The notes: generated by a model not told the origin, from the sequence alone. Positions 1 to 37,635 are shown, counted from the stretch's first letter. The stretch is DNA of 64,000 bases from an uncultured Actinomycetota bacterium (GCA_963796905.1 CAWCNK010000008.1:225298-289297); one strand, 5' to 3'. Numbers and translations: made by a program.

Positions 1-638
1 AGCTGCCGGCTGCTGGCGTCGCACACCCAGAGCGCGCCGCCGGCCGCGGCGATGCCCACCGGACTCGGGCTGACCTTGATGGTGCGGGTCCGGTTCGTCC
101 TGGCGTCGATCCGGGTCACCGTGCCGTCGCCGTTGTCGGTCACCCAGGCGGCCCCGGCGGCGAAGGTCACGTCGTAGGGCGAGCTGCCGACCGCGATCGT
201 GCGGGTCCGGTTGCTGGCCACGTCGATCCGGGTCACCGCCGAGCCGGTGTAGTCCTCCACCCAGATCGAGCCGGCGCCGAAGGCCATCCCGCACGGACCG
301 GCCGCGGTGCGGATGGTGGCCAGCACCCTGCCGGTGGCCGGATCGAGCCGCTTGACGGTGAAGTCGTTGATGTCGGCGACCCAGACCGAGCCGGCCGCGC
401 CCAGCGTGGCGCAGGGCCTGCTGCCGGTGTGGATCCGCCTGACCAGGTAGCGCGGATCGGCCGAACTCGTCGGGCTCGGTGCCGGCGAGGCGGCGGAACT
501 GCCCGACACCGGCCGCCCGGCCGCCGTCGGACCGGTGCTCGAGCCGCTCGTAGAGCTGCCGGACGAGCTGCAGCCGGCCGTCAGCAGCAGCGCCGCGGTG
601 CTGGCAACCAGTGCCTGGTGACGTCCCGAGGTCCTCAT
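1..638 (-). CDS. Lipoprotein with YVTN/NHL-like beta-propeller repeats (N-terminal part only; C-terminus lies beyond the left edge)
   Basis: Own translation of the minus strand from ATG at 636-638: MRTSGRHQALVASTAALLLTAGCSSSGS (lipobox LLTAGC). A Ser/Thr/Pro linker follows, then repeats of the type GxxPxGxAxGAGxxWVxDxxxGxVTRIDxxxNRTxTI. Absent from the ORF track because no stop lies in the window. GC3 is high. Confidence 0.7.
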   Translation of the reverse strand, partial: MRTSGRHQALVASTAALLLTAGCSSSGSSTSGSSTGPTAAGRPVSGSSAASPAPSPTSSADPRYLVRRIHTGSRPCATLGAAGSVWVADINDFTVKRLDPATGRVLATIRTAAGPCGMAFGAGSIWVEDYTGSAVTRIDVASNRTRTIAVGSSPYDVTFAAGAAWVTDNGDGTVTRIDARTNRTRTIKVSPSPVGIAAAGGALWVCDASSRQ

Positions 639-735
639 GCCGCCTCACCGTAGGGACGGCCGGTCACGGAGGTACTACGATTTCGTATTAGTTACTCTAC
701 CGTGACCTAGGTGGCCGCTCGGCTAGAGTCGCGGC

Positions 736-1209
736 ATGGCAGGACTGGAGTTCCGCGGCCCGTTCCTGCTGGTGTTCGCCCTGGGCCAGCAACTGGGCAC
801 CCTGCTGCAGCAGGCGATGGTCGACGCCCCGCTGCCGCCGAACGAATTCGCCGTCTACAGCGCGTTGCGGCTGATGCAGCCGACCACGCCCACCCAGCTG
901 GCCGGCACTCTCGGCATGCGGCCGACCACGCTGTCCAGCATGCTCGTCCGGATGTCGCGCAGCGGCCACCTGCACCGGCGCCGCAACCCGGCCGACGGGC
1001 GCTCGGTGATCCTGATGCTCAGCCCCAGCGGCGTACGGGTCACCGAAGCCTGCTTCGCCGCCTTCGGCCTGGCCATCGAGGCGTTCCAGCGGCAGTTGAG
1101 CATCGACGAGTCGGTGCTGCTCGCCGACCTGGAGGCGATGAGTGCCGCGCTGGCCGGCGCCAGCGCGGAGCTGGCCGAGCTGGATCAGGTTGCCGAGGCC
1201 GGCGGCTGA
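736..1209 (+). CDS. MarR family transcriptional regulator
   Basis: 157 aa. Winged-helix core EFAVYSALRLMQPTTPTQLAGTLGMRPTTLSSMLVRMSRSGHLHRRRNPADGRSVILMLSPSG is typical of MarR. An AT-rich stretch lies upstream (665-710). Confidence 0.85.
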   Translation: MAGLEFRGPFLLVFALGQQLGTLLQQAMVDAPLPPNEFAVYSALRLMQPTTPTQLAGTLGMRPTTLSSMLVRMSRSGHLHRRRNPADGRSVILMLSPSGVRVTEACFAAFGLAIEAFQRQLSIDESVLLADLEAMSAALAGASAELAELDQVAEAGG

Positions 1210-1348
1210 TCGGGCGGAGCCCGACCGGTTTTCCGGGTAACTGGTCGCTGTGCCCGGTAGGTCGCTAGCGTAGGGGGACGGGCCGAGCAGCGTGCCCCGC
1301 TCCGGCGCCAGATCGTCCGGCGCTGACTACCTGATGAGGAGTTGCAGG

Positions 1349-1639
1349 ATGACGGAAACCGAAGGAACCGCCGACGGCGGTGCGGAGGGCACTCCGGGCG
1401 TGCATGACGGTGGCGCCGATGGTGGCGCGGACGGCGGCGCGCACGAGGGTCCGGCCGACGGCGGTGCGCACGGCACCCCCGGTGCACATGACGGTGGCGC
1501 CGATGGTGGCGCGGACGGCGGTGCCGGTGACGGTGGCGCCGATGGTGGCGCGGACGGCGGCGCGCACGAGGGCCCGGCCGACGGCGGTGCCGACGGTGTT
1601 GCCGGCCAGCACGACGGCGGCGCGGACGGCGGCGCCTGA
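1349..1639 (+). CDS. Small (96 aa) Asp/Gly/Ala/His-rich tandem-repeat protein (DGGA repeats); hypothetical, possible peptide substrate
   Basis: ATG at 1349 lies 7 nt after GAGGAG (1336-1341). The product is MTETEGTADGGAEGTPGVHDGGADGGADGGAHEGPADGGAHGTPGAHDGGADGGADGGAGDGGADGGADGGAHEGPADGGADGVAGQHDGGADGGA. Third codon positions are mostly G/C. A stable hairpin follows the stop. Caveat: all frames stay open across this repeat, so coding status is unproven. Confidence 0.4.
   Translation: MTETEGTADGGAEGTPGVHDGGADGGADGGAHEGPADGGAHGTPGAHDGGADGGADGGAGDGGADGGADGGAHEGPADGGADGVAGQHDGGADGGA
1403..1632 (+). repeat. Imperfect tandem DNA repeats encoding the (H/A)DGGADGGADGG units
   Basis: The block gacggtggcgccgatggtggcgcggacggcggcgcgcacgaggg(t/c)ccggccgacggcggtgc occurs twice (about 1406 and about 1528). 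The shorter catgacggtggcgccgatggtggcgcggacggcgg also recurs (about 1403 and about 1487). Confidence 0.8.
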
Positions 1640-1653
1640 GCACTGAGCAGTCG

Positions 1654-1686
1654 CGGGGCGGCGTCGACCTGGTCGGCGCCGCCCCG
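1654..1686 (+). terminator. GC-rich hairpin between the micro-ORF and the cupin gene (attenuator or partial terminator candidate)
   Basis: Perfect 10-bp stem cggggcggcg (1654-1663) / cgccgccccg (1677-1686) with a 13-nt loop, 15 nt after the stop at 1637-1639. No clear U-tract follows (tctcccgacg), so it may only attenuate. Confidence 0.4.
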
Positions 1687-1746
1687 TCTCCCGACGCCGC
1701 CGGTCGGGGTACCGACGAGCCGGCCGCGCTGGCACGCTGCATCGCC

Positions 1747-2925
1747 ATGCCGGTCGAGCGGTTCGCCGCCGAGTACTGGTCGCGGCAGCCGTTGCTCACC
1801 CCGGCCGCCGAGAGCGGTGCGGACTACACCGACCTGCTCGACGCCGCGGCGGTCGACGAGCTACTGTCCCGACGCGGCCTGCGCACCCCGTTCATCCGGA
1901 TGGCCAAGCAGGGCAAGGTGATTCCGTCCGGGCAGTTCACCCGGTCGGGCGGTGTCGGTGCCGGGGTGGCCGACCAGGTGGCCGACGACAAGGTGCTCGG
2001 GCTGATGGCCGACGGGGCCACCCTGGTGCTGCAGGGCCTGCACCGCACCTGGCCGCCGCTGGTGCGCTTCGGCAGCAGGCTGAGCACCGAGCTGGGGCAT
2101 CCGGTCCAGATCAACAGCTACCTGACCCCGCCACAGAACCAGGGGTTCGCGCCGCACTACGACACCCACGACGTGTTCGTGCTGCAGGTCGCCGGCCGCA
2201 AGCGCTGGCTGGTGCACTCACCGGTGCTCACCGACCCGCTGCCCGGCCAGGACTGGGAACGGCACCGGGCGGCGGTGACGGCCCGGGCGGCCGAACCGCC
2301 GCTGCTCGACGAATTGCTGCACCCCGGCGACGCGCTGTACCTGCCGCGCGGCTACCTGCACTCGGCGGTGGCGCAGGGTGATACCTCGATTCACCTGACC
2401 GTCGGGGTGCACCCGGTGACCCGGTACGCCCTGCTCAAGCACCTGCTGGCCGAGGCGGCCGACGAGCCGTCCCTGCGCGCGTCGCTGCCGCTGGGTGGTG
2501 ACCTGGCCGGCGAGGCCGGACTGGCCGGCCAGTTGCACGAGACCGTGCGGGCCTTCGCCGCCTTCGCCGAGTCCGACCGGCTGGCGCAGGTGGCCGCCCG
2601 GGTGGCAGGCGAGCTGGCCGGTGGCACCCGGCCGGAACCGATCGAGCCGCTGGCCCAGCTGGCCGCGCTGGCGGTCCTGACACCGACGGCGCGGTTCCGG
2701 TTGCGGCCGGGCCTGCGGGCCCGAGTGGAACGCCGGCCGGATGCCGTCGCGGTCACCGCCGTCGATACCAGCATCAGCCTGCCGCCGGCGGCCGGGGCCG
2801 CGCTCGGGCTGGTGCTGTCCGGTGAGCCGGTTTGTGCCGCGACGTTGCCCGGCCTGGACGCCGAGGCCGCGCTCGACGTGGTCCGCCGGCTGCTCACCGC
2901 CGCCGTCCTGGTGCCCGATGCTTGA
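1747..2925 (+). CDS. Cupin-4 / JmjC-domain Fe(II)/2-oxoglutarate oxygenase-like protein (RoxA/YcfD-like)
   Basis: 392 aa. The double-stranded beta-helix core with the facial-triad context reads QINSYLTPPQNQGFAPHYDTHDVFVLQVAGRKRW...LYLPRGYLHSAV. Overall layout resembles bacterial ribosomal-oxygenase-type cupins. Confidence 0.8.
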   Translation: MPVERFAAEYWSRQPLLTPAAESGADYTDLLDAAAVDELLSRRGLRTPFIRMAKQGKVIPSGQFTRSGGVGAGVADQVADDKVLGLMADGATLVLQGLHRTWPPLVRFGSRLSTELGHPVQINSYLTPPQNQGFAPHYDTHDVFVLQVAGRKRWLVHSPVLTDPLPGQDWERHRAAVTARAAEPPLLDELLHPGDALYLPRGYLHSAVAQGDTSIHLTVGVHPVTRYALLKHLLAEAADEPSLRASLPLGGDLAGEAGLAGQLHETVRAFAAFAESDRLAQVAARVAGELAGGTRPEPIEPLAQLAALAVLTPTARFRLRPGLRARVERRPDAVAVTAVDTSISLPPAAGAALGLVLSGEPVCAATLPGLDAEAALDVVRRLLTAAVLVPDA

Positions 2926-3814
2926 CCCGGAGCACCGGTGCGGCCTGGCCGCCGCCGCCCGGGGTGAGGAGATGCTGGGCACCGCCTTTCCGGCCGACCG
3001 CATCCTGCTGGTCGAGCAGCCCGGCGGCTGGGGCGTGACGGGCCTGGCCGGCTCGCCGTTCGGCTCCCAGGTCGCGCAGCGGCTGATCGCCACCTTCGGC
3101 AGGCACGGCGTCCGGGTGCTGGCCATCCGGCGGCCCGGCCGGCACCCGGCGGCGGACCGGCACCCGGAGCACAGCTGGGGGTTCGCCGACTGCCGGCCCG
3201 GCAGCCAGGGCGTCGTCTGGGGCAGCTACCGGGCGGCCGAGCAGCTGCTGGAGCTGGACCCGGTCGCGCTGACCGAGCAGGCCGGGCGGGCCGGCGACAG
3301 CCCGCCGGTCTACGCGGTGTGCACGCACGGCACCCGGGACATGTGCTGCGCGATCGAGGGACGCCCGGTGGCCACCGCGCTGGCGCGGCAGTGCCCCGGC
3401 CGGGTCTGGGAATGCAGCCACGTCGGGGGCGATCGGTTCGCCGCCAACGTGCTGGTGCTGCCCACCGGGCAGCTGTACGGCCGGGTCAAGGACCCGCAGG
3501 CGTTGGCCGCGGCCAGCGACGCGGGACAGGTACTGCCCGACCTGCTGCGCGGTCAGGTCGGATTGCCGCCGGCCGCCCAGGCCGCCGTGGTGCACGCCCA
3601 GCGCGAGCTGGCGACGGCGACGGTGGGCGCGGTGCGGGTGATCGAGGTGCAGGGCGCGCCGCCGGAGGTGCAACTGGTCCGGCTGGCGGTGCCCGGCGGT
3701 TCCTGCACGGTCGCCGTGCAGCGGGTGACCGGGGCGCCGGCGATCCTCACCTGCCGAGACGCCCACACCAAGGTGCCGCTGAGCTACCGACCGCTGTGGC
3801 TGCGCCCCGACTGA
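2918..3814 (+). CDS. Sucrase/ferredoxin-like (thioredoxin-fold [2Fe-2S]) family protein
   Basis: ATG at 2918 overlaps the cupin stop (ATGCTTGA, 8-nt overlap). Motifs VCTHGTRDMCCAIEGRP and CSHVGGDRFAANVLV match the Cys/His cluster-ligand pattern of Suc_Fer-like / Apd1-Aim32 proteins. The longer track ORF from 2741 has a junk N-terminus. Confidence 0.75.
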   Translation: MLDPEHRCGLAAAARGEEMLGTAFPADRILLVEQPGGWGVTGLAGSPFGSQVAQRLIATFGRHGVRVLAIRRPGRHPAADRHPEHSWGFADCRPGSQGVVWGSYRAAEQLLELDPVALTEQAGRAGDSPPVYAVCTHGTRDMCCAIEGRPVATALARQCPGRVWECSHVGGDRFAANVLVLPTGQLYGRVKDPQALAAASDAGQVLPDLLRGQVGLPPAAQAAVVHAQRELATATVGAVRVIEVQGAPPEVQLVRLAVPGGSCTVAVQRVTGAPAILTCRDAHTKVPLSYRPLWLRPD

Positions 3815-3848
3815 TCCGCGCTCCGCGGACTGATCCGCGCTCCGCGGA
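3811..3848 (+). repeat. Perfect 19-nt direct repeat x2, each copy an internal palindrome
   Basis: ctgatccgcgctccgcgga appears at 3811-3829 and 3830-3848. Each copy holds tccgcg..cgcgga inverted arms. The first copy contains the stop codon of the preceding gene. Confidence 0.85.
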
Positions 3849-3865
3849 CTCAGGATCTCGGGTCC

Positions 3866-3913
3866 GTGTGTGATACCCAGCGGTCGCTGGGACCACGTCT
3901 GGATATCACACAC
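3866..3913. repeat. Nested inverted repeat (AT-richer long-range stem enclosing a GC hairpin)
   Basis: Outer arms gtgtgtgata (3866-3875) / tatcacacac (3904-3913) are a perfect 10 bp. Inner arms cccagcg (3876-3882) / cgctggg (3885-3891) are a perfect 7 bp. Confidence 0.8.
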
Positions 3914-3942
3914 ACGCCGGGGGCACGGGCGCCCGATACAGC

Positions 3943-3977
3943 GGAAGGGACGCCGGCGGTGTGCCGGCGTCCCTTCC
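3943..3977. terminator. Strong hairpin, likely bidirectional terminator between convergent genes
   Basis: Perfect 15-bp stem ggaagggacgccggc (3943-3957) / gccggcgtcccttcc (3963-3977) with a 5-nt loop. It lies 21 nt downstream of the minus-strand ABC ATPase stop (3999). Confidence 0.7.
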
Positions 3978-3998
3978 CCCTCGATCAGCGCTGAGCGG

Positions 3999-5117
<1,119 letters not shown>

Positions 5118-5396
5118 GCCAAACATCCTCTCGGTGAATGTTGGCCGCACCGGGTACGGGCGTGCGCGGGAGCGCAGCCTCACGGTATTCCGGTCGGTGC
5201 CGGGTTCCGCCTCCACCGATACGAAGACGGCGACCCCGGCCGGCATAGCGGCCTGGACTTTCTCATTCAGCCAGTTGCACCGCCGGGCGTCAAGCAAGGC
5301 GCCGTGCGGCGGGCGGAAAACCTCGGCAAGCACGGCCGGTCCGGTCCGCGCGGAGCGGCAGTCACCGCCACATGATTTATCAATGTTTGTTCTGAG

Positions 5397-5426
5397 TTGA
5401 CACCCAATAGCGGTATGTCCATATTG
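5397..5426 (+). promoter_or_regulatory. Near-consensus sigma-70-type promoter for the muramidase gene
   Basis: TTGACA (5397-5402), a 17-nt spacer, then cATATT (5420-5425), in a locally AT-rich patch about 60 nt upstream of the start codon. Confidence 0.45.
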
Positions 5427-5486
5427 ACTGCGGCGGTTCCACCCCCGGCCGCCGTCCCTCGACTGCTTCCCCCGAAGGAGTTCAGC

Positions 5487-6239
5487 ATGCTCGAAACCCC
5501 CAGCCGCCTGCGCCGTGTCCTCGGCGCCGCGATCGCCGCGGTGACCGTCGGCGCCGGCATGGTCGCCGCCCTCACCCTCGGCGCCGGCCAGGCAAGTGCT
5601 GCCACCTACGTCGCCGGCATGGACGTCTCCAGCTACCAGGGCAACGTCGCCTGGTCGACGGCCTACGCCAACGGCGCCCGGTTCGCCTACGTCAAGGCGA
5701 CCGAGGGCAGCAGCTACACCAACTCCTACTTCGCCCAGCAGTACAACGGTTCCTACAACGCGGGCATGATCCGCGGCGCGTACCACTTCGCGCGGCCGAA
5801 CGTCTCCGGCGGTGCCTCCCAGGCCGACTTCTTCGCCGCGCACGGTGGCGGCTGGTCCGGCGACGGCCGCACCCTGCCGCCGGCCCTGGACATCGAGTAC
5901 AACCCCTACTCCGGCGGCACCTGTTACGGGCTGTCCCAGTCGTCCATGGTGAGCTGGATCCGGGCGTTCTCCAACGAGATCAAGGCCAAGTACAACAAGT
6001 ACCCGATGATCTACACGACGCTGGACTGGTGGACGACCTGCACCGGCAACTCCAGCGCCTTCGCCGCCACCAACCCGTTCTGGATCGCCAAGTACAGCTC
6101 CACCGCGCCGACCCCGCCGGCCGGCACCCCGACCTGGACGATGTGGCAGTACGCCGACTCGGGCACCTTCCCCGGTGACCAGGACCGGTTCAACGGCACC
6201 TACAGCCAGCTGCAGGTACTGGCCACCAACCACGACTGA
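5487..6239 (+). CDS. Secreted GH25 muramidase (Chalaropsis/cellosyl-type lysozyme)
   Basis: ATG at 5487 follows AAGGAG. Signal peptide: MLETPSRLRRVLGAAIAAVTVGAGMVAALTLGAGQASA. The GH25 core reads GMDVSSYQGNVAWSTAYANGARFAYVKATEGSSYTN...GAYHFARP...LDIEYNPY. Confidence 0.9.
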   Translation: MLETPSRLRRVLGAAIAAVTVGAGMVAALTLGAGQASAATYVAGMDVSSYQGNVAWSTAYANGARFAYVKATEGSSYTNSYFAQQYNGSYNAGMIRGAYHFARPNVSGGASQADFFAAHGGGWSGDGRTLPPALDIEYNPYSGGTCYGLSQSSMVSWIRAFSNEIKAKYNKYPMIYTTLDWWTTCTGNSSAFAATNPFWIAKYSSTAPTPPAGTPTWTMWQYADSGTFPGDQDRFNGTYSQLQVLATNHD

Positions 6240-6302
6240 TCCCGTCGTAACGACAGCGGCCGTCCCCGTGCCCGGGGGCGGTCGCTGTCGCATGCCGGGG
6301 TT

Positions 6303-6842
6303 TCAGGCGGTGGGCACCCAGAACCGCAGCATGCCGTGGCGTTCGTCCTCGAGCATGCCGCCGTTGGCCTCGATCACCTTGCGGGAGCCGACATTGTCGG
6401 CGTCGCAGGTGAGCAACGCCTTGTCGATGCCCAGCCCCGCCGCGACCGGGAGCGCGGCCCGCAGCAGCGCGGTGCCGTGGCCCTGCCGGCGGGCCTTCGG
6501 GGCGATGTCGTAGCCGATGTGCCCGCCGTGCTCCAGCAGGCCGGGCGTCAGCCGGTGCCGGATCCGGATGGCGCCCAGGAACTCGGCGCCATCGACCCAC
6601 CAGTAGGTGCTGGAGTGCACCCAGCCGGGTGGCGGTGGCACCGAGGGGTCGCCCTGGGCGTCCAGTTCGGCCAGGAACTCCGCGAGGCCGTCGTCGGTGT
6701 GCCAGCGCGGGCCGAAGGCGCGCAGTTGCTGGCCGAGCGCGGAGTCGTCGTCCGGGGCGCCCCGGCCCTCGGCGGCGAAGTCGGCCATCGCCGATCGGAA
6801 GGAGGCCGCCAACGCGGCGCTGGGTCGGGCAAGCTCGGGCAT
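6303..6842 (-). CDS. GNAT family N-acetyltransferase
   Basis: 179 aa. The acetyl-CoA binding segment is RRQGHGTALLRAAL, and the C-terminal fold pattern is SRKVIEANGG. Confidence 0.8.
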   Translation of the reverse strand: MPELARPSAALAASFRSAMADFAAEGRGAPDDDSALGQQLRAFGPRWHTDDGLAEFLAELDAQGDPSVPPPPGWVHSSTYWWVDGAEFLGAIRIRHRLTPGLLEHGGHIGYDIAPKARRQGHGTALLRAALPVAAGLGIDKALLTCDADNVGSRKVIEANGGMLEDERHGMLRFWVPTA

Positions 6843-6870
6843 CGGGCCATGGTGGCCGCCCGGCCGGTTG

Positions 6871-7569
6871 TCAGGCCAGCGAATTTCCGTTCTCGGCGGC
6901 CCGCAATGTCTCCACCTCGGCGGTGATGGCGGCCATGATCTCGTCGGTCACCTGCCGCAGCAGGTCGGTGGTGATCTCGGCGTCGTGGTACTTGCTCAGG
7001 TCCAGTGGCTCACCGAGGCTGGCCTCGTGCCGGTGCCGCGGCAACGGCCGGAACCGGCCGCCCCGGCCCAGCGTCCGGTGTGCCCCCCACTGGCCGACCG
7101 GGATGACCGGGACATCCGGGCAGGCCAGCGCCAGCCGGGCCACCCCGGTCTTGGCCTGCATCGGCCAGTAGTCCGGGTCGGACGTGATGGTGCCCTCCGG
7201 ATAGATGATCACGCACTCGCCGTCGCGCAGCGCCTGCTCGGCAGCCCGCAGCGAGTCGGCCGCCTGGCTGGAGGACCGGTACACCGGGATCTGGCCGGCA
7301 CCGGTCATCACCCGTCCGATGCCCGGCCAGCCGAACACGCCGGATTTGATCAGGAACCGCGGGATCCGGCCGGACTGCCAGATCAGCCGGGCCATCGTGG
7401 TGGTGTCGGCCTGCGAGATGTGGTTGACGGCGACCAGCACCCCGCCGCGGGCCGGCATCCGGTCCAGGTGGTGCCAGCGGATCTTGAAGAACGCCGAGAC
7501 CATCGGGTAGATGATCACCACGCACAGCCGGATCCAGAAACCGGCCTTGGGCCGGTGCGCTCGGGTCAT
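6871..7569 (-). CDS. Lysophospholipid (1-acyl-sn-glycerol-3-phosphate) acyltransferase family protein
   Basis: 232 aa. HX4D motif VNHISQADT and the IYPEGT motif are present, with an N-terminal membrane segment. Confidence 0.85.
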   Translation of the reverse strand: MTRAHRPKAGFWIRLCVVIIYPMVSAFFKIRWHHLDRMPARGGVLVAVNHISQADTTTMARLIWQSGRIPRFLIKSGVFGWPGIGRVMTGAGQIPVYRSSSQAADSLRAAEQALRDGECVIIYPEGTITSDPDYWPMQAKTGVARLALACPDVPVIPVGQWGAHRTLGRGGRFRPLPRHRHEASLGEPLDLSKYHDAEITTDLLRQVTDEIMAAITAEVETLRAAENGNSLA

Positions 7570-7714
7570 CGGCTGCTCCTCGGTGGCCGCTGCTGGGATG
7601 CCGCGGCGTCGCGTTCATTCCTACCCCGGCGGCCTGGGCCGGCTTTACGCGGGTGCTGTCCCGTGAGGCGCAGGTCGGGCCCACTCTCGTGCTGTCAGCG
7701 ACCGGGCGCGAGGG

Positions 7715-10700
7715 TCATTCCGCGGCGTCGGTCTGGCCGGCCTCACGGTCGAGGTCGCTCAGTCGCTGGCGTGCCAGGCCGAGGTCGCGCTGGTAGCTGG
7801 CGTTGTCCGGGTCCAGCCGGGTCAGGGCCTTGGCGACGCTGAGGTAGCGCCGATGGTGCTGGGCTGCGTCTGCGGGCCGGCCGGCGGCGTGGTCGAGATC
7901 GCCCAGCCGTTGGTGGGCGATGCCAAGGTCTTGCTGGTAGCTGGCGTTGTCGGGGTCTAACTGCGTCAGGGCCTCGGCGACGCTGAGGTAGTGCCGGTAG
8001 TGCTGGGCTGCGTCTGCGGGCCGCCCGGCGTCTCGGTCGAGGTCGCCCAGCCGTTGGTGGGCGACGCCGAGGTCCTGCTGGTAGCTGGGGTTGTCCGGGT
8101 CCAGGTGGGTCAGGGTCTTGGCGACGCTGAGGTAGCGCCGATGGTGCTGGGCTGCGTCTGCGGGCCGGCCGGCGGCGTGGTCGAGATCGCCCAGCCGTTG
8201 GTGGGCGACGCCGAGGTCTTGCTGGTAGTTGGCGTTGTCGGAGTCTCGCTGCGTCAGGGCCTTGGCGACGCTGAGGTAGTGCCGGTAGTGCTGGGCTGCG
8301 TCTGCGGGCCGGCCGGCGTCTCGGTCGAGGTCGCCCAGCCGCAGGTGGGCCAGGCCCAGATCGCGCTGGTATCCGGGGTTGTCGGGGTCCTTCCGGGTCA
8401 GAGTCTCGGCTGCGGCAAGGTAAAGCTGAAAGTGCTGGGCTGCCTCTGCGGTCCGGTCGGCGTCACGGTCGAGGTCGCCCAGCCGTTGGTGGGCGACGCC
8501 GAGGTCCTGCTGGTATCCGGGGTAGTCGGGGTCCTTCCGGGTCAGAGTCTCGGCGATGCTGAGGCAGTGGTGGTAGTGCCGGGCTGCGTCTGCGGTCCGG
8601 CCGGCGGCACGGTCGAGGTCGCCCAGCCGTTGGTGGGCCACGCAAAGGCTGTGCTGGTAGCCGGGGTCGCCGGGCTGCGCATCGGCCGCCTGGGTATCGA
8701 TGGCCAAAGCGAGTACGAGGAGGACTCGCGCGTCCCTCGTCCTGCCGTAGTCCTTGAGGAGAGTGCCCAGGTCATCGAGCGACGAACTCAGCGAGTTGCG
8801 GACGGTAACGGGCAACCGAAGCACGGTCTCGGTTCGGAGAAGAGCGGCGTCGGCGCGAGAAAGGGCGTCGAGCAACTGAATTCTCCCTTGCTGTGCATCG
8901 GGAGTGCCGGGCTGGACACAACGCTCGGCAAGCCGCTCGTGGCTGGCCAGTAATGCGGTACTGAGCAGCCCTCGGGTTTCGACGTTGTCCGCCACGCGGA
9001 CGAGAACCGTCAACGCTCGGCCGACCTGGTCGGCGCTGCTCAGGTGTAGCACCGCTTCCAGCAGCGCAAGCCGCTCGGCACCCAGCCCGAGCTGGTGAAT
9101 GACGAGTGCCTCGCCGAGCCGGTCCGGCCGCAGCGGGTTCCACAGGTCCATGCCCGGGTAGAGCTCTCGGACGGCGTTGCTCAGCCGACTTCGCAGCTCC
9201 TCGTCGGCTGCCTCGGGAATCAGGTCGAGCAGAGCTTCAGCCTCGGATTCGTCGCGCGCGCCACAGAGGGTGGCCAGCGCGACGGCGAGCGGCAGCAGGT
9301 CGACCAGCTCGGGGTAGCGGCGGCGCCAGTGGCGTTTCTCGTGGTCCAGCGCGCGATCGACCGGCACCCGGTCGGGTTCCGGAGAATCATCAGTGCCGGT
9401 AAGGACATCGTCGAACGCCTCGAACAGCACATCGAGCGGTCGTGCGTGCTGGGACGGGTCGATGGTCCACCGATGCTGATCACCGGGTGCCCAGCCGTCA
9501 CCGAACCAGGCACGCCCGAAGCTGGTAACGGCCGCCTCGTAGAGCACCTGCTGCTGTTCGGGTGTCCAGCCCGCGAAGGTGCCGGACAGGTCGCGAGCCT
9601 GGTCGAGTGCCGACAGCGCGGCGCCCGATGCGTCGTCCTTGAGCAGGTCGATGGCATGGCCGACCGGTGAGCCTGCTGCCGGCCGGCTCAGCAGCAGGAG
9701 CCGTGCCGGCGTCAGGGCAGTGGCGGCGCGGGTCATCTCGGCCAGCTGCCGGCCCAGCTGAGGGGTGTCGTGTTCGTCGACATAGTCGACGACGAGCAGC
9801 CGAGGGGCATCCAACGTGGCGGCGCCCCGATCGTCGGCGGGCAGGAATCCGGTTACCCAGCCTCGCCGTTCCAGCTGTCGGCACGCCTCGATCGCGAACC
9901 TGGTCTTGCCGACACCACCCGCGCCCTCGAGGTAGGCGACGGACACCGGCATCGGGTCCGAGCACCAGGCGGCTATCCGGTCGAGCTCGTCGCCGTGCGG
10001 CAGGTAGGGCACCACGCCGAACTCGGCCCGCAGCATCGTCGAGGGTTGGCCGGTCTGAGGCTCGACCATGGCACCGACCCAGGACCGGTCAACCGTGTCG
10101 AGCGCTCCGCCGATCTGGATGGTGGCGGCCCAATGGTCTCGGTCACGCAGTGCAGCGCCGCTGTTCAGCTCGATCAGCCGCCGCCCGAGCTGGGTCAGCT
10201 CGTCGTCGACACTGGCCTCGGTCAACGCCGCGATCGGTGAGGCCCAGCCGCCACGCGGCGCGGTGACCGACCGGGAAACCGACATCAGCCCGATGACGCC
10301 GCGGCGGGTGGGGCAGATCAGCGGAGCTCCGCTGAGTCCCGGCGGCGCCTCGCCGGCCTGCAGTTGCAGGAATCCGTCGGCGTCCTGCCCGACGAAGCTG
10401 AACGAGGCGGGGCCACCCACCGCCACCACGCCCTCCTCGCGGCGACCGAAACCCCAGGCGTGTAGCTCGGTGCTCCGGCTCGGTTCGTCCAAAACCAGGG
10501 GCGCGCAGACGTGTCCGCTCCAGCCGTCCAGCTGCACTACCGCCAGATCCGGGTAGGGCCAGAACGCGGATCGAGAGCCTTCCGAAGGGGAATCGGACCG
10601 GGCTCGCACCACGCCGGCCACCGTCGGCGGCGGCTGACTGCCGTCCAGCGCGGCCCGCCGATCCATTGCCACCGCCACCTCGCGGGCGTCGCGCACCACG

Positions 10701-10825
10701 TGCGCGCAGGTCAGGACCCAGCCTGGCGCCACCAGCACCCCGGAGCCCCAGGACTTGCCGGTGGCCGGGTCCTGCAGCCGGACCACGAACCGGCGCAACT
10801 CCCGATCGATGATCTGGCGGACCAC
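7715..10825 (-). CDS. Trypsin-like serine protease / STAND P-loop NTPase (NB-ARC/NACHT-like) / TPR-repeat fusion protein
   Basis: 1036 aa. S1 protease triad contexts are LTCAHVV (His), DLAVVQL (Asp) and GLSGAPLI (Ser). Walker A is EGAGGVGKTRF and Walker B is RLLVVDYVDE. The C-terminus holds 6 full plus 1 partial 48-aa TPR-like repeats (DPDNxxYQQDLGVAHQRLGDLDRDAGRPADAAQHYRHYLSVAxALTxL). Confidence 0.85.
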   Translation of the reverse strand: MVRQIIDRELRRFVVRLQDPATGKSWGSGVLVAPGWVLTCAHVVRDAREVAVAMDRRAALDGSQPPPTVAGVVRARSDSPSEGSRSAFWPYPDLAVVQLDGWSGHVCAPLVLDEPSRSTELHAWGFGRREEGVVAVGGPASFSFVGQDADGFLQLQAGEAPPGLSGAPLICPTRRGVIGLMSVSRSVTAPRGGWASPIAALTEASVDDELTQLGRRLIELNSGAALRDRDHWAATIQIGGALDTVDRSWVGAMVEPQTGQPSTMLRAEFGVVPYLPHGDELDRIAAWCSDPMPVSVAYLEGAGGVGKTRFAIEACRQLERRGWVTGFLPADDRGAATLDAPRLLVVDYVDEHDTPQLGRQLAEMTRAATALTPARLLLLSRPAAGSPVGHAIDLLKDDASGAALSALDQARDLSGTFAGWTPEQQQVLYEAAVTSFGRAWFGDGWAPGDQHRWTIDPSQHARPLDVLFEAFDDVLTGTDDSPEPDRVPVDRALDHEKRHWRRRYPELVDLLPLAVALATLCGARDESEAEALLDLIPEAADEELRSRLSNAVRELYPGMDLWNPLRPDRLGEALVIHQLGLGAERLALLEAVLHLSSADQVGRALTVLVRVADNVETRGLLSTALLASHERLAERCVQPGTPDAQQGRIQLLDALSRADAALLRTETVLRLPVTVRNSLSSSLDDLGTLLKDYGRTRDARVLLVLALAIDTQAADAQPGDPGYQHSLCVAHQRLGDLDRAAGRTADAARHYHHCLSIAETLTRKDPDYPGYQQDLGVAHQRLGDLDRDADRTAEAAQHFQLYLAAAETLTRKDPDNPGYQRDLGLAHLRLGDLDRDAGRPADAAQHYRHYLSVAKALTQRDSDNANYQQDLGVAHQRLGDLDHAAGRPADAAQHHRRYLSVAKTLTHLDPDNPSYQQDLGVAHQRLGDLDRDAGRPADAAQHYRHYLSVAEALTQLDPDNASYQQDLGIAHQRLGDLDHAAGRPADAAQHHRRYLSVAKALTRLDPDNASYQRDLGLARQRLSDLDREAGQTDAAE
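7718..8671 (-). repeat. 144-bp tandem coding repeats (about 6.6 units) with a 288-bp two-unit super-repeat
   Basis: The string gtgctgggctgcgtctgcgggcc recurs with 144-nt spacing (about 7857, 8001, 8145, 8289). Alternate units are nearly identical at DNA level: HAAGRP..HHRRYLSVAK units alternate with RDAGRP..HYRHYLSVA units. Confidence 0.85.
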
Positions 10826-10841
10826 GAGCCAGGTGGACCCG

Positions 10842-11159
10842 TCAGCTCGCCGCGGCGGCCGGCGTTGGCTTCCAGGTCAGTGTCACCTTCAGCGAGGCCT
10901 CGCCCCCGCCTTCGACGAGCAGGCCGGTCAGCTTTCCGGACTTCGCGGTCACCTTCAGCGCGAACTCCACCTGCGCCTCGTCGGGCTTGATGGTCTGCCA
11001 GGCCTGGGACAGCTCGGCACCGATCGCCGTGACCGTCTCCCGAACCCCCTGGAAGGACATCGGACCGTTCCGGTCATCGATCGTCGTCGGTCCGTCGCCG
11101 TCGGCCACCTCTACGTAGAACTCGACCCCGTCGGCGACGACTAACTGCTCCTGACCCAT
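10842..11159 (-). CDS. Small trypco2-like (trypsin-co-occurring domain) protein
   Basis: 105 aa from ATG at 11159, preceded by GGGGAGG. Its stop lies 16 nt upstream of the protease-STAND start. MGQEQLVVADGVEFYVEVA...EAQVEFALKVTAKSGKLTGLLVEGGGEASLKVTLTWKP matches my recollection of the trypco2 / CU044_2847-type pattern (VEFEL..A..G..V..GGEAS..H.V.L.W.P). This was not verified by search. Confidence 0.6.
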   Translation of the reverse strand: MGQEQLVVADGVEFYVEVADGDGPTTIDDRNGPMSFQGVRETVTAIGAELSQAWQTIKPDEAQVEFALKVTAKSGKLTGLLVEGGGEASLKVTLTWKPTPAAAAS

Positions 11160-11319
11160 CTGTGCCTCCCCGTGGCGACTGCCGAACCTCGGCACGGACA
11201 GACTAGGGCCGATACGCACCTAGAGGGAGAGTTGTCGCCGTCGAGTTGGTTGCCAGCCATTCGGGCAGATCCTCGTTGGCAGCTCGCGGCCGGCCTCGGC
11301 AGCCCCCCGCTGCCGTGAA

Positions 11320-11754
11320 TCAGGTCCAGCTCTGGCCCGGTTCGTAACTGCCGAAGCTCCACTCGTGCCCCTCCTGGTCGAGTACCCGGGACCGGCGGGT
11401 ACCCCACTCGGTCGATTCCGGCTTGAACACCTCGCGTGCGCCGGCCGAAACGGCCTGCTGGTGCAGGGCGTCCACGTCGGCGACCCGCAGGTAGAGACCG
11501 CCGCCGGTGGATCTCCCTTTCAGCGCCGGGACGTCGTAGCCCGCGTCGTCGCTGGCGACCATCAGCACCACCGAGCCCAGCCGTACCTCGGCATGGGTGA
11601 CGGTGCTGGCCGGTCCATCCTGCCGCGTGAGGATGGTGAAGCCCAGCGCCTGCAACCAGTCCAGCGCGGCTGGTGCGTCCCGGTAGCTGAGGTAGGCGAA
11701 GAGGGCCGGCTCACTCACCGGGGCAGTATCGGCACCGACCCGGGCATCCGACAA
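11320..11754 (-). CDS. VOC (glyoxalase/bleomycin-resistance/dioxygenase) family protein
   Basis: 144 aa. Paired beta-alpha-beta-beta-beta pattern: LSYRDAPAALDWLQALGF...HAEVRLG...LYLRVADVDALHQQAVSAGA...W....RVLDQEGHEWSF. Confidence 0.7.
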   Translation of the reverse strand: MSDARVGADTAPVSEPALFAYLSYRDAPAALDWLQALGFTILTRQDGPASTVTHAEVRLGSVVLMVASDDAGYDVPALKGRSTGGGLYLRVADVDALHQQAVSAGAREVFKPESTEWGTRRSRVLDQEGHEWSFGSYEPGQSWT

Positions 11755-19355: not shown

Positions 19356-20687
19356 TTGAAGCGCACGGTAACGGGTGCCATCGTCCTGGCGGCGACGCTG
19401 GCCATGACGGCCACCGGCTGCACCTCGGACAAGTCCTCGAAAGCATCGAACGCCAAGGCCGACACCTCGGTGCTGAGCACCGACGGTGCCGGCAAGACCA
19501 TCAAGGTCTGGCTGCAGAGCGACGCCCAGAAGGGCTGGCCGGACGTCGTCCAGCAGGCCAGCCAGCGCTTCGAGCAGGCGACCGGCGCCAAGGTGGACGT
19601 CCAGTGGCAGCAGTGGTCGAACTACACCACCAAGCTGGACTCCACGTTCGCCGGCAGCAGCGGCGTCCCGGACGTGGTGGAGCTGGGCAACACCCAGACC
19701 GCCTCCTACATCGCGGCCGGCGCCTTCCTCGACCTGACCTCGGCCAAGGGCCAGTTCGAGAACTCGGGCAGCTGGCTGCAGGGCCTGGCCGAGTCGGGCA
19801 CGTCGCCGGCCGGCAAGCTGATGGCGGTGCCGTACTACGCCGGCAGCCGGGTGGTCATCTACCGCAAGGACCTGTGGACCAAGGCCGGCGTCACCACGGC
19901 GCCGACCACCCTGGACGAGCTGTTCGCCGACCTGGACAAGGTCAAGGCCGCCAACGCCTCCGACCCGCGGTTCTCCGCCTTCTACATGGCGGGCAAGAAC
20001 TGGTACGCGGCGATGTCGTTCGTCTACGGCGCCGGCGGCAAGATCGCCGAGCAGAGCAACGGCCAGTGGACCGGCGCGCTGGAGAGCAGCCAGGCCCAGC
20101 AGGGACTGGACCGGTGGAAGCAGCTCGCCACCACGTACTCGGTGGGCGGCGCCACCAAGGACGAGTCCGACCAGGACGCCATCATGGCGCTCGGCCACAC
20201 CGGGGCGATCCTCGGCAACGGCTGGGAGGTCGGCGCGGTGACCGACAAGAAGACCGGCAACCCGGCGCTGGCGTCCAAGCTGGACACCTTCCCGATGCCG
20301 GGCACCGCGGCCGGCCAGTACACCCCGTCGTTCCTGGGTGGTTCGGACCTGGCCGTCCCGGCCAAGGCGCCCAACGCCGGCCTCGGCGCCCAGTGGGTGA
20401 AGTACTTCACCGACACGACCAGCCAGACGGCGCTGGCCAAGTTCGCCATCCCGAACACCACGTCGCTGCTGGGCGTGTACTCCGGGCAGGCGCAGGCCAA
20501 CCAGTCGACCGGCGAGGCGGCCAAGAACACCTGGTTCGTGCCCAACACGCCGAACTGGGCCAACGTCGAGAGCGGCAATATCCTGCAGAACATGCTCACC
20601 TCGATCGCGACCGGCAAGAGCAGCGTGGCCGACGCCGCCAAGGCGGCGGACGGCCAGATCGCCACCACGCTCAACGCCAGCGGCTGA
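19356..20687 (+). CDS. ABC transporter sugar-binding lipoprotein (family 1 SBP)
   Basis: TTG at 19356 lies 5 nt after GGAGG. Signal and lipobox: LKRTVTGAIVLAATLAMTATGC. The body is typical of a sugar SBP. Confidence 0.85.
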   Translation: MKRTVTGAIVLAATLAMTATGCTSDKSSKASNAKADTSVLSTDGAGKTIKVWLQSDAQKGWPDVVQQASQRFEQATGAKVDVQWQQWSNYTTKLDSTFAGSSGVPDVVELGNTQTASYIAAGAFLDLTSAKGQFENSGSWLQGLAESGTSPAGKLMAVPYYAGSRVVIYRKDLWTKAGVTTAPTTLDELFADLDKVKAANASDPRFSAFYMAGKNWYAAMSFVYGAGGKIAEQSNGQWTGALESSQAQQGLDRWKQLATTYSVGGATKDESDQDAIMALGHTGAILGNGWEVGAVTDKKTGNPALASKLDTFPMPGTAAGQYTPSFLGGSDLAVPAKAPNAGLGAQWVKYFTDTTSQTALAKFAIPNTTSLLGVYSGQAQANQSTGEAAKNTWFVPNTPNWANVESGNILQNMLTSIATGKSSVADAAKAADGQIATTLNASG

Positions 20688-20790
20688 CGGGTACCACCCA
20701 GAGGTCGGCGGGGAGCAGCTGACGAGCGCGGTGCGGGCAGGCGGTGATCCACCTGCCCGCACCGGCCTTTCCGAGCAGGAGGAGGAGTAG

Positions 20791-21774
20791 ATGACCGCCA
20801 CCGTCCCCGGGCCACCGGCCCTGCAGCCCGACACCACCGGCCCGCGCGGCCGGCGGGGCCGGCGCAACCGGCCGGTCCGCGGCGGTGGCCTGCCGTACCT
20901 GCTGATCGTGCCGGCGGTGTTCGTCCTGCTGGTCGTGGTGGCCCAGCCACTGTTCAAGATCGTCCAGCTCTCGCTGCAGAAGCAGGAATCCGGAAAGTTC
21001 GCGCTGTTCCACTCCGGCGCCAGCACCCCGTTCGTCGGGCTGGACAACTACCGCAAAGTGCTGAGCGACTCGAGGTTCTGGACCGTGCTCGGCCGCACCG
21101 CGGCGTTCACCGCGATCAACGTGGTGCTGAGCATGCTGATCGGCATCGGGATCGCGGTACTGCTGAACCGGGTCTCGGCCTGGGCCCGGCTGACGCTGAT
21201 CGCGGTGCTGCTGTTCGTGTGGGCCATCCCGACCACGGTGTCGACGCAGGTCTTCTACTGGCTGTTCAACAACCAGTTCGGTGCGGTGAACTACCTGCTG
21301 GACCTGGTCCCCGGGGTGCACCTGCAGGGCCACGACTGGTTCGCCGATCCGCACCAGGGGCTGGCGGTGATCGCCGCCGTGGTGATCTGGGGCGCGGTGC
21401 CGTTGCTGGCGATCTCGCTGCACGCCGGAATCGGCCAGATCCCGAAGGAGATCGGCGAGTCGGCCCGCTGCGACGGTGCCGGTGGCTGGCAGGTGTTCCG
21501 CCACATCACGTTGCCGTTCCTGGCCCCGTTGCTGGTGATCCTCACGACGCTGTCGGTGATCTGGGACTTCGGGGTGTTCAACCAGATCTGGTTCATGCGC
21601 ACCGGCCACCCCGAACCGGGGTACCAGACCATCGGCATCTACATGTACTCGACCGGGATCGGGTCCAGCCACTACAACACCGGCGCGACCATCGGCGTGC
21701 TGATGATGCTGGGCCTGCTCGGCGTCATGATCGCCTACATCCGTCAGCTGCTGCGGATCTCGGACGCCGCATGA
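20791..21774 (+). CDS. Carbohydrate ABC transporter permease (MalF/UgpA-like)
   Basis: 327 aa. RBS GGAGGAGGAG precedes it. Six TM segments and an EAA-like loop (ESARCDGAGGWQVFRHITLP) are present. Confidence 0.85.
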   Translation: MTATVPGPPALQPDTTGPRGRRGRRNRPVRGGGLPYLLIVPAVFVLLVVVAQPLFKIVQLSLQKQESGKFALFHSGASTPFVGLDNYRKVLSDSRFWTVLGRTAAFTAINVVLSMLIGIGIAVLLNRVSAWARLTLIAVLLFVWAIPTTVSTQVFYWLFNNQFGAVNYLLDLVPGVHLQGHDWFADPHQGLAVIAAVVIWGAVPLLAISLHAGIGQIPKEIGESARCDGAGGWQVFRHITLPFLAPLLVILTTLSVIWDFGVFNQIWFMRTGHPEPGYQTIGIYMYSTGIGSSHYNTGATIGVLMMLGLLGVMIAYIRQLLRISDAA

Positions 21775-21811
21775 GCCGCCAGAGCCGCCAGAGCCGGAAG
21801 CGGGCCACAGG

Positions 21812-22732
21812 ATGAGCACGACCACCGACCAGCTCCCCGCCGTGCCGGTCACTCCGGTGTCGCAGCCGTCGGACCGGCCGGTCCGGCGCCGCCGGCGCAC
21901 CCGGCGCAGCTATGCCACCGCCGGCTGGAACACCCTGGCGATGCTGGTGGCCGTGCTGTTCGGCTTCCCGGTCTACTGGATGCTGATCACCTCCTTCAAG
22001 ACCAGCGCCGACATCAACCGGTTGGTGCCGCAGTTCTGGCCGCGGCACCCCACGCTGGCGAGCTTCCGCGAGGTGCTCGCCGACCCGATCTTCCGGCAGG
22101 ACCTGGCCAACACCTTCGTCATCACGCTCGCCGCGGTCGCGATCAGCGTCGTCATCGGCTTCTTCGCCGCGCTGGCGATCGCCCGGTTCCGGTTCGCCGG
22201 CCGCCGGGTGTTCGTCTTCGCGGTGCTGATCGTGCAGATGATTCCCCTGCTGGCACTGACGATTCCGATGTCGCTGCTGCTCGACCGGTACCAGCTGAAG
22301 AACTCCCTCACCGGCGTGGTGCTGGCCTACCTGATGTTCACCATGCCCTACACGGTCTGGACGCTGCGCACCTTCATCGCCAACATCCCGATCGAGCTCG
22401 ACGAGGCGGCCATGGTCGACGGCTGCAGCAGATTCCAGACGTTCTACCGGATCATCCTGCCGCTGGTCGCCCCCGGGCTGATCGCCACCAGCGTGTTCGG
22501 CTGGATCCTGGCCTGGAACGAGTTCGTGCTGGCCAACACGCTGCTGCTCGACAACAGCAAGCAGACCTCGATGATCTACCTGCTGATCTTCCAGTCCAGC
22601 CCGACGCACGGTGCCGACTACGGCGGCCTGATGGCGGCCGCCGCCCTCACCGCGCTGCCGGTGGTGGTGCTGTTCGTGCTGTTCCAGAGCCGCATCTCGG
22701 CCGGGCTCACCGCCGGCGCGGTGAAGGGCTGA
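21812..22732 (+). CDS. Carbohydrate ABC transporter permease (MalG/UgpE-like)
   Basis: 306 aa. The EAA loop reads DEAAMVDGCSRFQTFYRIILP. Confidence 0.85.
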   Translation: MSTTTDQLPAVPVTPVSQPSDRPVRRRRRTRRSYATAGWNTLAMLVAVLFGFPVYWMLITSFKTSADINRLVPQFWPRHPTLASFREVLADPIFRQDLANTFVITLAAVAISVVIGFFAALAIARFRFAGRRVFVFAVLIVQMIPLLALTIPMSLLLDRYQLKNSLTGVVLAYLMFTMPYTVWTLRTFIANIPIELDEAAMVDGCSRFQTFYRIILPLVAPGLIATSVFGWILAWNEFVLANTLLLDNSKQTSMIYLLIFQSSPTHGADYGGLMAAAALTALPVVVLFVLFQSRISAGLTAGAVKG

Positions 22733-34252: not shown

Positions 34253-34750
34253 TTAGAGGCCGTTGCCGGTGGATGACCGCCGCTTCGACCTCGGGTTGTG
34301 CTTCTGCTTCTTCTTCGGGCGCTTGTCCTCCTCAGAGCCCGAGTCCGACTCGGACTCCTCGTCGGACTCGGACTCGTAGACGCCCTCCTTGCCGACACTG
34401 GCCCGGTCGGCCAGGTCGGTCAGCTCGTAGCCGGCGATCCCGCTGTCGGCGAAGGCCTTGGGATAGTCCTGCTCGGCCGTCTGTAGGACCTTGCGCACGG
34501 TCCGCTCAGCCAGGTCGGTGTCGGCCTCGCCCACATCGCACAGCGCGAGGATGTGGCGTACCAGGTCATCCGGCGAGAACATCCGCTCGCCCCGCTGGTA
34601 GGCGGCAAGCTCGACCCGGTGGTGGGATTCGGCCTTGCCGCCGGTGTCGGCCGCGTCCAGCACGGCGCTGTCCGGCGCGTCGGTGATCTCCTCCAGCATC
34701 GCGACGATGGCGTCCTGGAGTTCGACCAGCGGCATGCTGGCCGCCGGCAA
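34253..34750 (-). CDS. Hypothetical protein with acidic Ser/Glu tract and basic C-terminal tail
   Basis: Good GC3 throughout. Possible starts are TTG at 34750 (GGGGGAG 9 nt upstream) or ATG at 34735. The protein ends ...VYESESDEESESDSGSEEDKRPKKKQKHNPRSKRRSSTGNGL. Its first ~60 codons overlap the tail of the upstream giant ORF. Confidence 0.5.
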   Translation of the reverse strand: MPAASMPLVELQDAIVAMLEEITDAPDSAVLDAADTGGKAESHHRVELAAYQRGERMFSPDDLVRHILALCDVGEADTDLAERTVRKVLQTAEQDYPKAFADSGIAGYELTDLADRASVGKEGVYESESDEESESDSGSEEDKRPKKKQKHNPRSKRRSSTGNGL

Positions 34751-37472: not shown

Positions 37473-37635
37473 CTGGGCTCCTGATGTGTCGCTGTGGCAG
37501 GACGCGGCGTCCTGTGAGGCCCCCGGGCGGAAGGGTAGCCGGGTGACGGCGGGCCGGCGGGCGATTGCCGATCGCGGCGCGCGACCGGGACGCCGGCCGT
37601 TTCGCACCGGGCCGCCGGCTGGCTACGGTCGAGAC

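Follow-up and report, generated by a model that had tools for sequence, protein, structure and literature searches.

The stretch of DNA analysed in this work (hereafter the window) comprises 64,000 nucleotides of an uncultured Actinomycetota bacterium (GCA_963796905.1, CAWCNK010000008.1:225298-289297). Its minus strand harbours a compact, 3.4-kb pair of genes that is described here as a candidate conflict system. The upstream gene encodes a small protein of the Trypco1 family, and the downstream gene encodes a large protein in which a trypsin-like protease, a putative STAND-type nucleoside triphosphatase (NTPase) and an array of tetratricopeptide repeat (TPR)-like units follow each other from the N- to the C-terminus (Table 1).

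Table 1. Features of the Trypco1 gene pair and two further genes of the window (aa, amino acids; nt, nucleotides).
Feature	Coordinates	Strand	Residues	Basis or remark
Trypco1 gene	10842..11159	-	105 aa plus stop codon	Pfam PF19493 and NCBIfam NF041216
Shine-Dalgarno sequence GGGGAGG	11165..11171	-		5 nt 5' of the Trypco1 ATG; read from the sequence
Trypco1 loop with conserved G23 and I27	11058..11105	-	aa 19-34	Candidate protease cleavage site
Large gene	7715..10825	-	1036 aa plus stop codon	Trypsin-like protease, STAND-type NTPase, TPR-like repeats
Trypsin-like (S1/PA clan) protease domain	10136..10825	-	aa 1-230	Trypsin_2 match, catalytic triad, fold
Catalytic histidine	10700-10702	-	H42	Alignment and sequence reading
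Catalytic aspartate	10547-10549	-	D93	Alignment and sequence reading
Catalytic serine	10331-10333	-	S165	Alignment and sequence reading
P-loop NTPase and helical module	8678..10135	-	aa 231-716	Conserved columns, AlphaFold2 model, hhalign
Walker A motif GAGGVGKT	9905-9907	-	K307	Coordinates of the lysine codon
Walker B motif LLVVD	9785-9787	-	D347	Coordinates of the aspartate codon
Sensor-1-type arginine	9683-9685	-	R381	Coordinates of the arginine codon
TPR-like repeats (6 full and 1 partial, 48 aa each)	7718..8677	-	aa 717-1036	TPR models, Tandem Repeats Finder; presumed ligand sensor
GH25 muramidase gene	5397-6239	+		1.5 kb from the pair
eCIS_core gene	34566-37607	-	1013 aa	Pfam PF13699

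The first-pass annotation of the window, made from the sequence alone, had described a 105-residue open reading frame (ORF) with a strong ribosome-binding site ending 16 nt ahead of a 1036-residue ORF. The list of ORFs and inspection of the sequence confirmed this arrangement: the stop codon of the small ORF (10842-10844) is separated by a 16-nt gap from the GTG start codon of the large one (10825) on the same strand. The motifs which it had quoted were likewise all present, i.e., LTCAHVV (containing H42), DLAVVQL (D93), GLSGAPL (S165), GAGGVGKT (K307) and LLVVDYVDE (D347). The small frame is open over positions 10842..11219 of the minus strand and might start at a GTG, yielding 125 residues, or at an internal ATG at position 11159, yielding 105 residues. 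The latter start is favoured because all homologs begin at the corresponding methionine. Neither ORF is a product of chance given the many homologs of both proteins (206 of the small one, with a best E value of 1.8e-57; over 100 of the large one, which also has an identical database entry). A scan of positions 7400-11500 for promoters and terminators gave no hits, a result that is uninformative for a high-GC actinobacterium.

The small protein matched the Pfam model of Trypco1 (PF19493) almost over its entire length (model positions 3-98 of 98; 67.1 bits at a cutoff of 24.6, E=2.2e-18) and NCBIfam model NF041216, the CU044_2847 family, with 58.6 bits (cutoff 23, E=7.8e-16). The Trypco2 model PF19631 gave no match at E≤1. 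The original label 'trypco2-like' was thus wrong; the hidden Markov model search proposed for the small ORF turned out negative for Trypco2 and positive for Trypco1. Trypco1-type partners are abundant, with 682 representative clusters at 50% identity. Neither an enzymatic motif nor a transmembrane segment was found in the protein. According to the AlphaFold2 model of the monomer, it would consist of a β-hairpin (residues 3-18), a disordered loop (19-34), a helix (37-57) and a long hairpin (62-96). Hydrophobic moments indicate an amphipathic character of the helix as well as of the two long strands. The N-terminal hairpin is acidic: residues 1-27 account for -6.5 of the net charge of -7.5 of the window protein, and in the family as a whole the average charge of this segment is also acidic (-2.5). 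In one homolog (P0258), a segment resembling an acyl carrier protein (ACP), as judged by eye, is fused ahead of Trypco1. Proteins with 5 to 14 tandem 'Trypco1' stretches (P0294, P0349, P0350 and P0307), considered as possible single-chain barrels, were rejected as Rib-domain or other repetitive proteins.

The N-terminal domain of the large protein was recognised by the Trypsin_2 and Trypsin models over residues 11-198 (44.5 bits at a cutoff of 27.6 and 33.3 bits at a cutoff of 20.6, respectively). The AlphaFold2 model of residues 1-720 was confident (pLDDT 90, pTM 0.89), and a Foldseek search with this model placed neutrophil elastase, granzyme M, proteinase 3 (PR3) and DegS on top (E about 1e-8). 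In an alignment of 53 homologs, H42, D93 and S165 were invariant. The S1 protease that had been taken for apparently intact therefore has a complete triad and a predicted chymotrypsin-type fold, and the loss of the triad, which would have spoken against the first-pass annotation, did not occur.

The same alignment revealed conservation of the nucleotide-binding residues in the central part of the protein: G304, G306 and K307 of the Walker A motif were invariant, while D347 of the Walker B motif and R381, the arginine which ends an 'LLLSR' strand, were conserved in at least 90% of the homologs. H495-E496 of this module were also invariant. In the structural model, the NTPase region comprises alternating β and α segments followed by helical domains, an order that fits the STAND layout. 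A 15-member alignment restricted to the NTPase yielded faint matches to AAA_16, AAA_25 and nSTAND_NTPase5, the last with E=0.004 at best in two of the 15 members; the Pfam models of NB-ARC and NACHT matched neither the large protein nor this alignment. Over approximately 340 to 380 residues, the NTPase-helical module is homologous to that of two other proteins, a cyanobacterial TIR-NTPase-TPR protein (P0236; hhalign probability 99.8%) and a trypsin-NTPase protein (100%). Both relatives gave sub-threshold matches to nSTAND_NTPase5 (26-27 bits at a threshold of 34). Moreover, the STAND seeds curated by Lee et al. (2026, bioRxiv 10.64898/2026.01.04.697583) include one member of the family, Micromonospora WP_282283407.1 (P0123), as number 608. 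The module carries a TIR domain in P0236; such swapping of effectors on one NTPase module is typical of STAND conflict systems. Because of the homologous modules with an nSTAND_NTPase5 signal, the STAND-seed homolog, the tripartite architecture and the effector swapping, we call the NTPase a divergent STAND-type enzyme which is nSTAND5-like and, according to profile models, does not belong to NB-ARC, NACHT or known Avs proteins. It resembles nSTAND_NTPase5 (PF25199) and the STAND clades of Lee et al. (2026) in its Walker A and Walker B motifs, sensor-1 arginine, helical domains and C-terminal repeat sensor; it differs in that every match stayed below the gathering score of 34 bits (24-27 bits in relatives) and in that E values of 0.004 were at best attained by the two family members mentioned. 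The architecture of a P-loop STAND NTPase, as originally claimed, is hence supported by conserved motifs, predicted layout and the seed homolog. In several Streptomyces homologs of the large protein (P0171, P0172, P0179 and P0185), precomputed Pfam annotations include a phosphopantetheine-binding, ACP-like domain (PF00550).

The C-terminal part of the large protein was matched by TPR_9 (63.4 bits, cutoff 35), TPR_11 (48.2 bits, cutoff 26.8) and TPR_12 (44.1 bits, cutoff 30.1) over residues 730-1000. Tandem Repeats Finder reported a period of 144 nt and 6.5 copies at positions 7735-8674. The period of 48 residues noted at first reading is thus exact, and the unit is longer than 34 residues. Alternate units are up to 90% identical at the amino acid level and up to 95% at the nucleotide level, which reveals a recent duplication of two units (288 nt). 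The closest relative (P0122), encoded on a contig with the same gene order as the window (L026), possesses 11 full units. Between the two loci, identity amounts to 95% for Trypco1, 85% for the protease and 88% for the NTPase, and to 61-70% for the repeat region; the array evolves fast. Variation clusters at a few unit positions, 13, 28, 30, 37, 40, 41 and 47, a pattern that would be expected of a diversifying ligand sensor.

To assess the linkage of the two genes, 25 genome loci with a close Trypco1 relative were sampled. A homolog of the large protein was encoded directly downstream of Trypco1 on the same strand in 23 of them. One of the two exceptions (L025) lies at the end of a contig, and the other (L024) is an orphan Trypco1 in truncated form. 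In the latter locus (positions 6001-8078), the orphan matches only residues 34-97 and has no protease beside it, the genes that follow encoding a GIDE-domain protein and a luciferase-like monooxygenase; this copy of Trypco1 has probably decayed. The pair was also intact in four further loci (L026-L029). Intact copies in Micromonospora sp. WMMD998, Streptomyces sp. NPDC002209 and a metagenome-assembled genome (MAG) lie in neighbourhoods that otherwise have nothing in common: one is flanked by transposases, and another is located amid hypothetical, DUF4231, DUF4145 and Zeta-toxin genes. The linkage of the pair is thus conserved across unrelated contexts. In one case (P0205, a Logan contig encoding 1308 residues), Trypco1 (residues 11-100) and the trypsin-NTPase-TPR chain form a single polypeptide. 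At the junction the conserved tryptophan is replaced by cysteine (…RVRLTCTAPRPRPSDAM…). Given the single short contig, either a real fusion by stop loss or an artefact of sequencing may lie behind this.

The pair in the window is surrounded by GH25, GNAT, PlsC, VOC and MMPL genes. Within positions 7715-11754, the GC content at third codon positions (GC3) reached 0.83 in the large gene, with 0.80 in the part encoding the NTPase, as well as 0.88 in Trypco1 and 0.85 in the VOC gene next to it. The 29 other genes of the window had a GC3 of 0.93±0.03, so that the module lies approximately 1.7 to 3 standard deviations lower, which hints at foreign origin or weak codon adaptation. Neighbours and lower GC3 fit the earlier view of a compact module inserted among unrelated housekeeping-type genes. 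Mobility of the module is supported; membership in defence islands is not. Components of the MoxR, vWA and VMAP type were absent from the neighbours in the window and from L026-L029.

Two of the other loci carry additional genes close to the pair. In Micromonospora sp. WMMD998 (L027, CP120740.1), a second large AAA_16-TPR protein (1126 residues) and a 150-residue, unannotated upstream gene are encoded about 2 kb from it (positions 3967-7934) and may represent another STAND-type two-gene module. In Streptomyces sp. NPDC002209 (L028, positions 443-8566 and 20186-22652), the pair lies amid many hypothetical genes, DUF4145, DUF6233 and DUF4231 genes and a Zeta_toxin/AAA_33 cluster, a region that looks like a variable or conflict island.

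The names Trypco1 and Trypco2 were given to domains that occur, one to the exclusion of the other, beside trypsin-like peptidases in NTP-dependent conflict systems, which are over-represented among actinobacteria and further multicellular bacteria (Kaur, Burroughs, Iyer and Aravind 2020, eLife, PMC7159879). As in the vWA-MoxR (VMAP) systems of that work, the Trypco1 gene of the window adjoins a gene that joins a catalytically intact trypsin-like peptidase to an NTP-dependent conflict protein. The pair differs from them in that no MoxR, vWA or VMAP component is present and the protease forms one chain with a STAND-type NTPase and TPR-like repeats. Since the loci lack MoxR and vWA genes, the module is binary and not a ternary VMAP system, and the context from which the Trypco domains were originally described is absent here.

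A closer counterpart was characterised by Evans et al. (2025, bioRxiv 10.1101/2025.11.14.688446), who refer to both Trypco1 and Trypco2 as 'Pepco' and assayed one such protein, SsPepco of Streptomyces subrutilus. SsPepco is a Trypco2 protein, as evident from its match to PF19631 (5e-18) and from its naming in the supplementary legends of that study. It is a pre-formed β-barrel toxin, with SDS-resistant barrels of 9 to 10 subunits. Its trypsin-Avs4 partner, triggered by phage portal protein, cuts SsPepco after Ile97 and thereby removes a 2-kDa tail. A truncated version whose last residue is Ile97 is toxic, and an N-terminal amphipathic helix is needed. In all four cases assayed so far, the small or enzymatic partner linked to a protease was a cleavage-activated toxin. 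The statement that such a pair had not been characterised experimentally is therefore outdated for Trypco2 and trypsin-Avs4, and it holds for Trypco1; similarly, the proposed role of the small partner as substrate or pro-toxin agrees with the mechanism published for the sister family Trypco2, not for Trypco1 itself.

The S. subrutilus system and the pair in the window share the actinobacterial host and the position of a small gene directly upstream of a STAND protein with an N-terminal trypsin-like protease. In their first 85 residues, the two proteases are 31% identical, and a WPxPDL motif is common to both. The small proteins are both acidic, comprise about 100 to 120 residues and combine an amphipathic helix with amphipathic β-strands. 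They differ in family (PF19493 versus PF19631) and in the position of the extension, which is N-terminal in Trypco1 and C-terminal in Trypco2, and the sensor is not Avs4 (no PADLOC match) but a divergent NTPase with 48-residue TPR-like repeats. With Avs1-Avs5 and bNACHT proteins, the large protein has in common the order of N-terminal effector, STAND NTPase and C-terminal repeat sensor, and protease versions with separate latent effectors exist among these NLRs. Unlike them, it lacks a match to the PADLOC Avs models and to NACHT or NB-ARC, and a solved STAND structure was not detectable by sequence. Of the original designation as an NLR-type conflict system, the architecture thus stands, whereas membership in the known Avs or NACHT groups is not supported by profile models. 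The module belongs to a catalogued class whose sister Trypco2 version has already been shown to work via a protease-activated toxin.

Based on the conserved domains, the recurrent pairing of the two genes and these precedents, we consider it fairly probable that the pair forms a self-contained conflict module which moves horizontally and combines a protease fused to a sensor with a small latent effector. By analogy with SsPepco, the Trypco1 protein is probably a cleavage-activated toxin of the adjacent NLR-like sensor with its built-in protease. In the proposed mechanism, the large protein would act as an NLR-like switch. Binding of a ligand, possibly derived from a phage, to the array of 48-residue TPR-like repeats would induce nucleotide exchange and oligomerisation of the STAND-type P-loop NTPase, which would bring the N-terminal protease domains together and activate them. 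The protease would then cut the co-transcribed Trypco1 protein and convert it from a latent into a toxic state, most likely a membrane-active oligomer that might form pores, and cell death or arrest would follow according to the logic of abortive infection. By analogy, the module may have an anti-phage role.

Several observations weigh against this interpretation. No Pfam STAND family reached its gathering threshold on the NTPase (18-20 bits for AAA_16 at the P-loop, as compared with 32.6), and searches of PDB sequences with the large protein and the NTPase profile detected no solved STAND structure; the top 50 Foldseek hits of the model of residues 1-720 were all proteases. PADLOC models, which the first-pass annotation had suggested for a check, matched neither protein as Avs or any other catalogued system (E 0.004-0.016 at best for the large protein, none for the small one). 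When 117 neighbouring proteins from 28 loci were scanned crudely and in bulk with PADLOC, only isolated generic matches and no recurrent defence system emerged, hence support from defence islands is lacking. The neighbours in the window are housekeeping-type genes. The Trypco1 monomer model is of low confidence (pLDDT 58, with the loop of residues 19-34 below 50) and has no structural match, as Foldseek returned noise only (E about 1 or worse); a PDB sequence search with the Trypco1 profile gave nothing useful, nor did one with SsPepco. The comparison of broad hhalign profiles for Trypco1 (122 diverse representatives) and Trypco2 (91 sequences) yielded a probability of 0.25%, i.e., no detectable homology. 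None of the comparisons between the two families was significant, whether the broad profiles were aligned globally or locally, alternative alignments were considered or a shallow profile was compared to SsPepco. As homology is undetectable, the pore mechanism would carry over to Trypco1 solely by analogy of context. Finally, Trypco1 is devoid of the C-terminal tail which is the target of cleavage in Trypco2.

The latter difference is evident from the termini of the two families. Trypco2 proteins share a conserved C-terminal site, LGG-x-[RP]-A-[KR]-I|RR, which is followed by a long tail. In Trypco1, nothing is conserved beyond W96; the median length after the core is 7 residues, and 71% of the sequences have 12 or fewer. 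Any Ile or Val occurs in the tails of 29 of the 122 representatives, and the window tail (KPTPAAAAS) contains neither and hence no Ile cleavage site of the kind used in Pepco. The helix-plus-hairpin core is preceded by a median of 37 residues in Trypco1; in Trypco2, 4 residues precede and 54 follow it. Within the N-terminal extension of Trypco1, the predicted loop contains G23 in 89 of 120 sequences (from the 122 representatives) and V or I at position 27 in 101 of 120. At this position, homologs without V or I have A, L, M or T within a gap-rich part of the alignment. Position 28 is mostly G, S or A, and D in the window protein. Processing of Trypco1 may therefore occur in this N-terminal loop, with a candidate site after I27, and not in a C-terminal tail. 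A more far-reaching possibility, which we put forward only tentatively, is that Trypco1 is no divergent Trypco2 but an independent, mirror-image latent toxin. Cleavage in the loop at G23-x-x-x-[V/I]27 would remove the acidic N-terminal pro-segment (residues 1-27) and free the core (residues 28-97), which, being nearly neutral and composed of an amphipathic helix and a long amphipathic hairpin, would assemble or insert into the membrane. If true, the term 'Pepco' covers two effector families that are unrelated and become activated with opposite polarity. The published activation site of Trypco2 is not available to Trypco1.

Rather than being the toxin, Trypco1 might regulate the protease as an inhibitor, pseudo-substrate, chaperone or adaptor, in which case the activated protease itself would cut host or invader proteins. 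Trypco1 is listed among 'adapter domains' (Doré et al. 2023), proteases without an effector partner can defend alone (Evans et al. 2025), and both the lack of detectable similarity to the proven Trypco2 toxin and that of an enzymatic motif or a transmembrane segment would be in line with such a function. We nevertheless regard it as unlikely given the four out of four assayed partners that proved to be cleavage-activated toxins (Evans et al. 2025). Besides, the mutual exclusion of Trypco1 and Trypco2 beside the same kind of protease suggests equivalent roles (Kaur et al. 2020), and the amphipathic helix and long amphipathic hairpin of Trypco1 would suit a membrane-active oligomer.

A different objection concerns the trigger. 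In filamentous actinobacteria, the pair might serve as a developmental, stress or kin discrimination switch in which the STAND-TPR part converts an endogenous or neighbour-derived cue into regulated proteolysis or programmed cell death. That the nearest assayed analogue responds to phage portal protein (Evans et al. 2025) makes such a non-antiviral role quite unlikely, and so do the transposase-adjacent or variable sites of the pair elsewhere and its atypical codon composition, which are features of accessory mobile DNA and not of a core developmental gene. It would be compatible, however, with the association of related systems with multicellular bacteria (Kaur et al. 2020) and with the stress-response roles raised for related modules (Evans et al. 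2025). No association with defence islands was seen in the sampled loci or in the window, and the NTPase-TPR chassis of P0238 carries a LuxR/GerE DNA-binding domain, as is the case in STAND transcription regulators. Fungal allorecognition NLRs likewise typically possess repeat arrays of high self-similarity and variable copy number, which again would fit a non-antiviral switch. Decay is a further explanation to be considered, since frameshifted copies occur in some MAG loci and the truncated orphan Trypco1 of L024 lies beside unrelated genes. For the pair in the window, a non-functional remnant is highly improbable: neither ORF is disrupted, every catalytic and nucleotide-binding residue is retained, with the triad and K307 invariant and D347 and R381 near-invariant among the 53 homologs, and Trypco1 shows 95% identity with the nearest relative. 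A mobile conflict module with Trypco1 as latent toxin would add one more case, here in a high-GC actinobacterium, to the protease-gated cell-death logic common to bacteria and eukaryotic innate immunity. The compact pair would be a reasonable test case for the biochemistry of Trypco1 and for an actinophage or endogenous ligand.

Two other genes of the window are mentioned for completeness. The GH25 muramidase encoded near the pair has an N-terminal hydrophobic, signal-like segment and is also present in the syntenic locus L026. The 1013-residue ORF listed at the end of Table 1 matches eCIS_core (E=6.8e-26, residues 200-275). Domains of this type are associated with polymorphic toxins as well as with the cargo or toxins of extracellular contractile injection systems.

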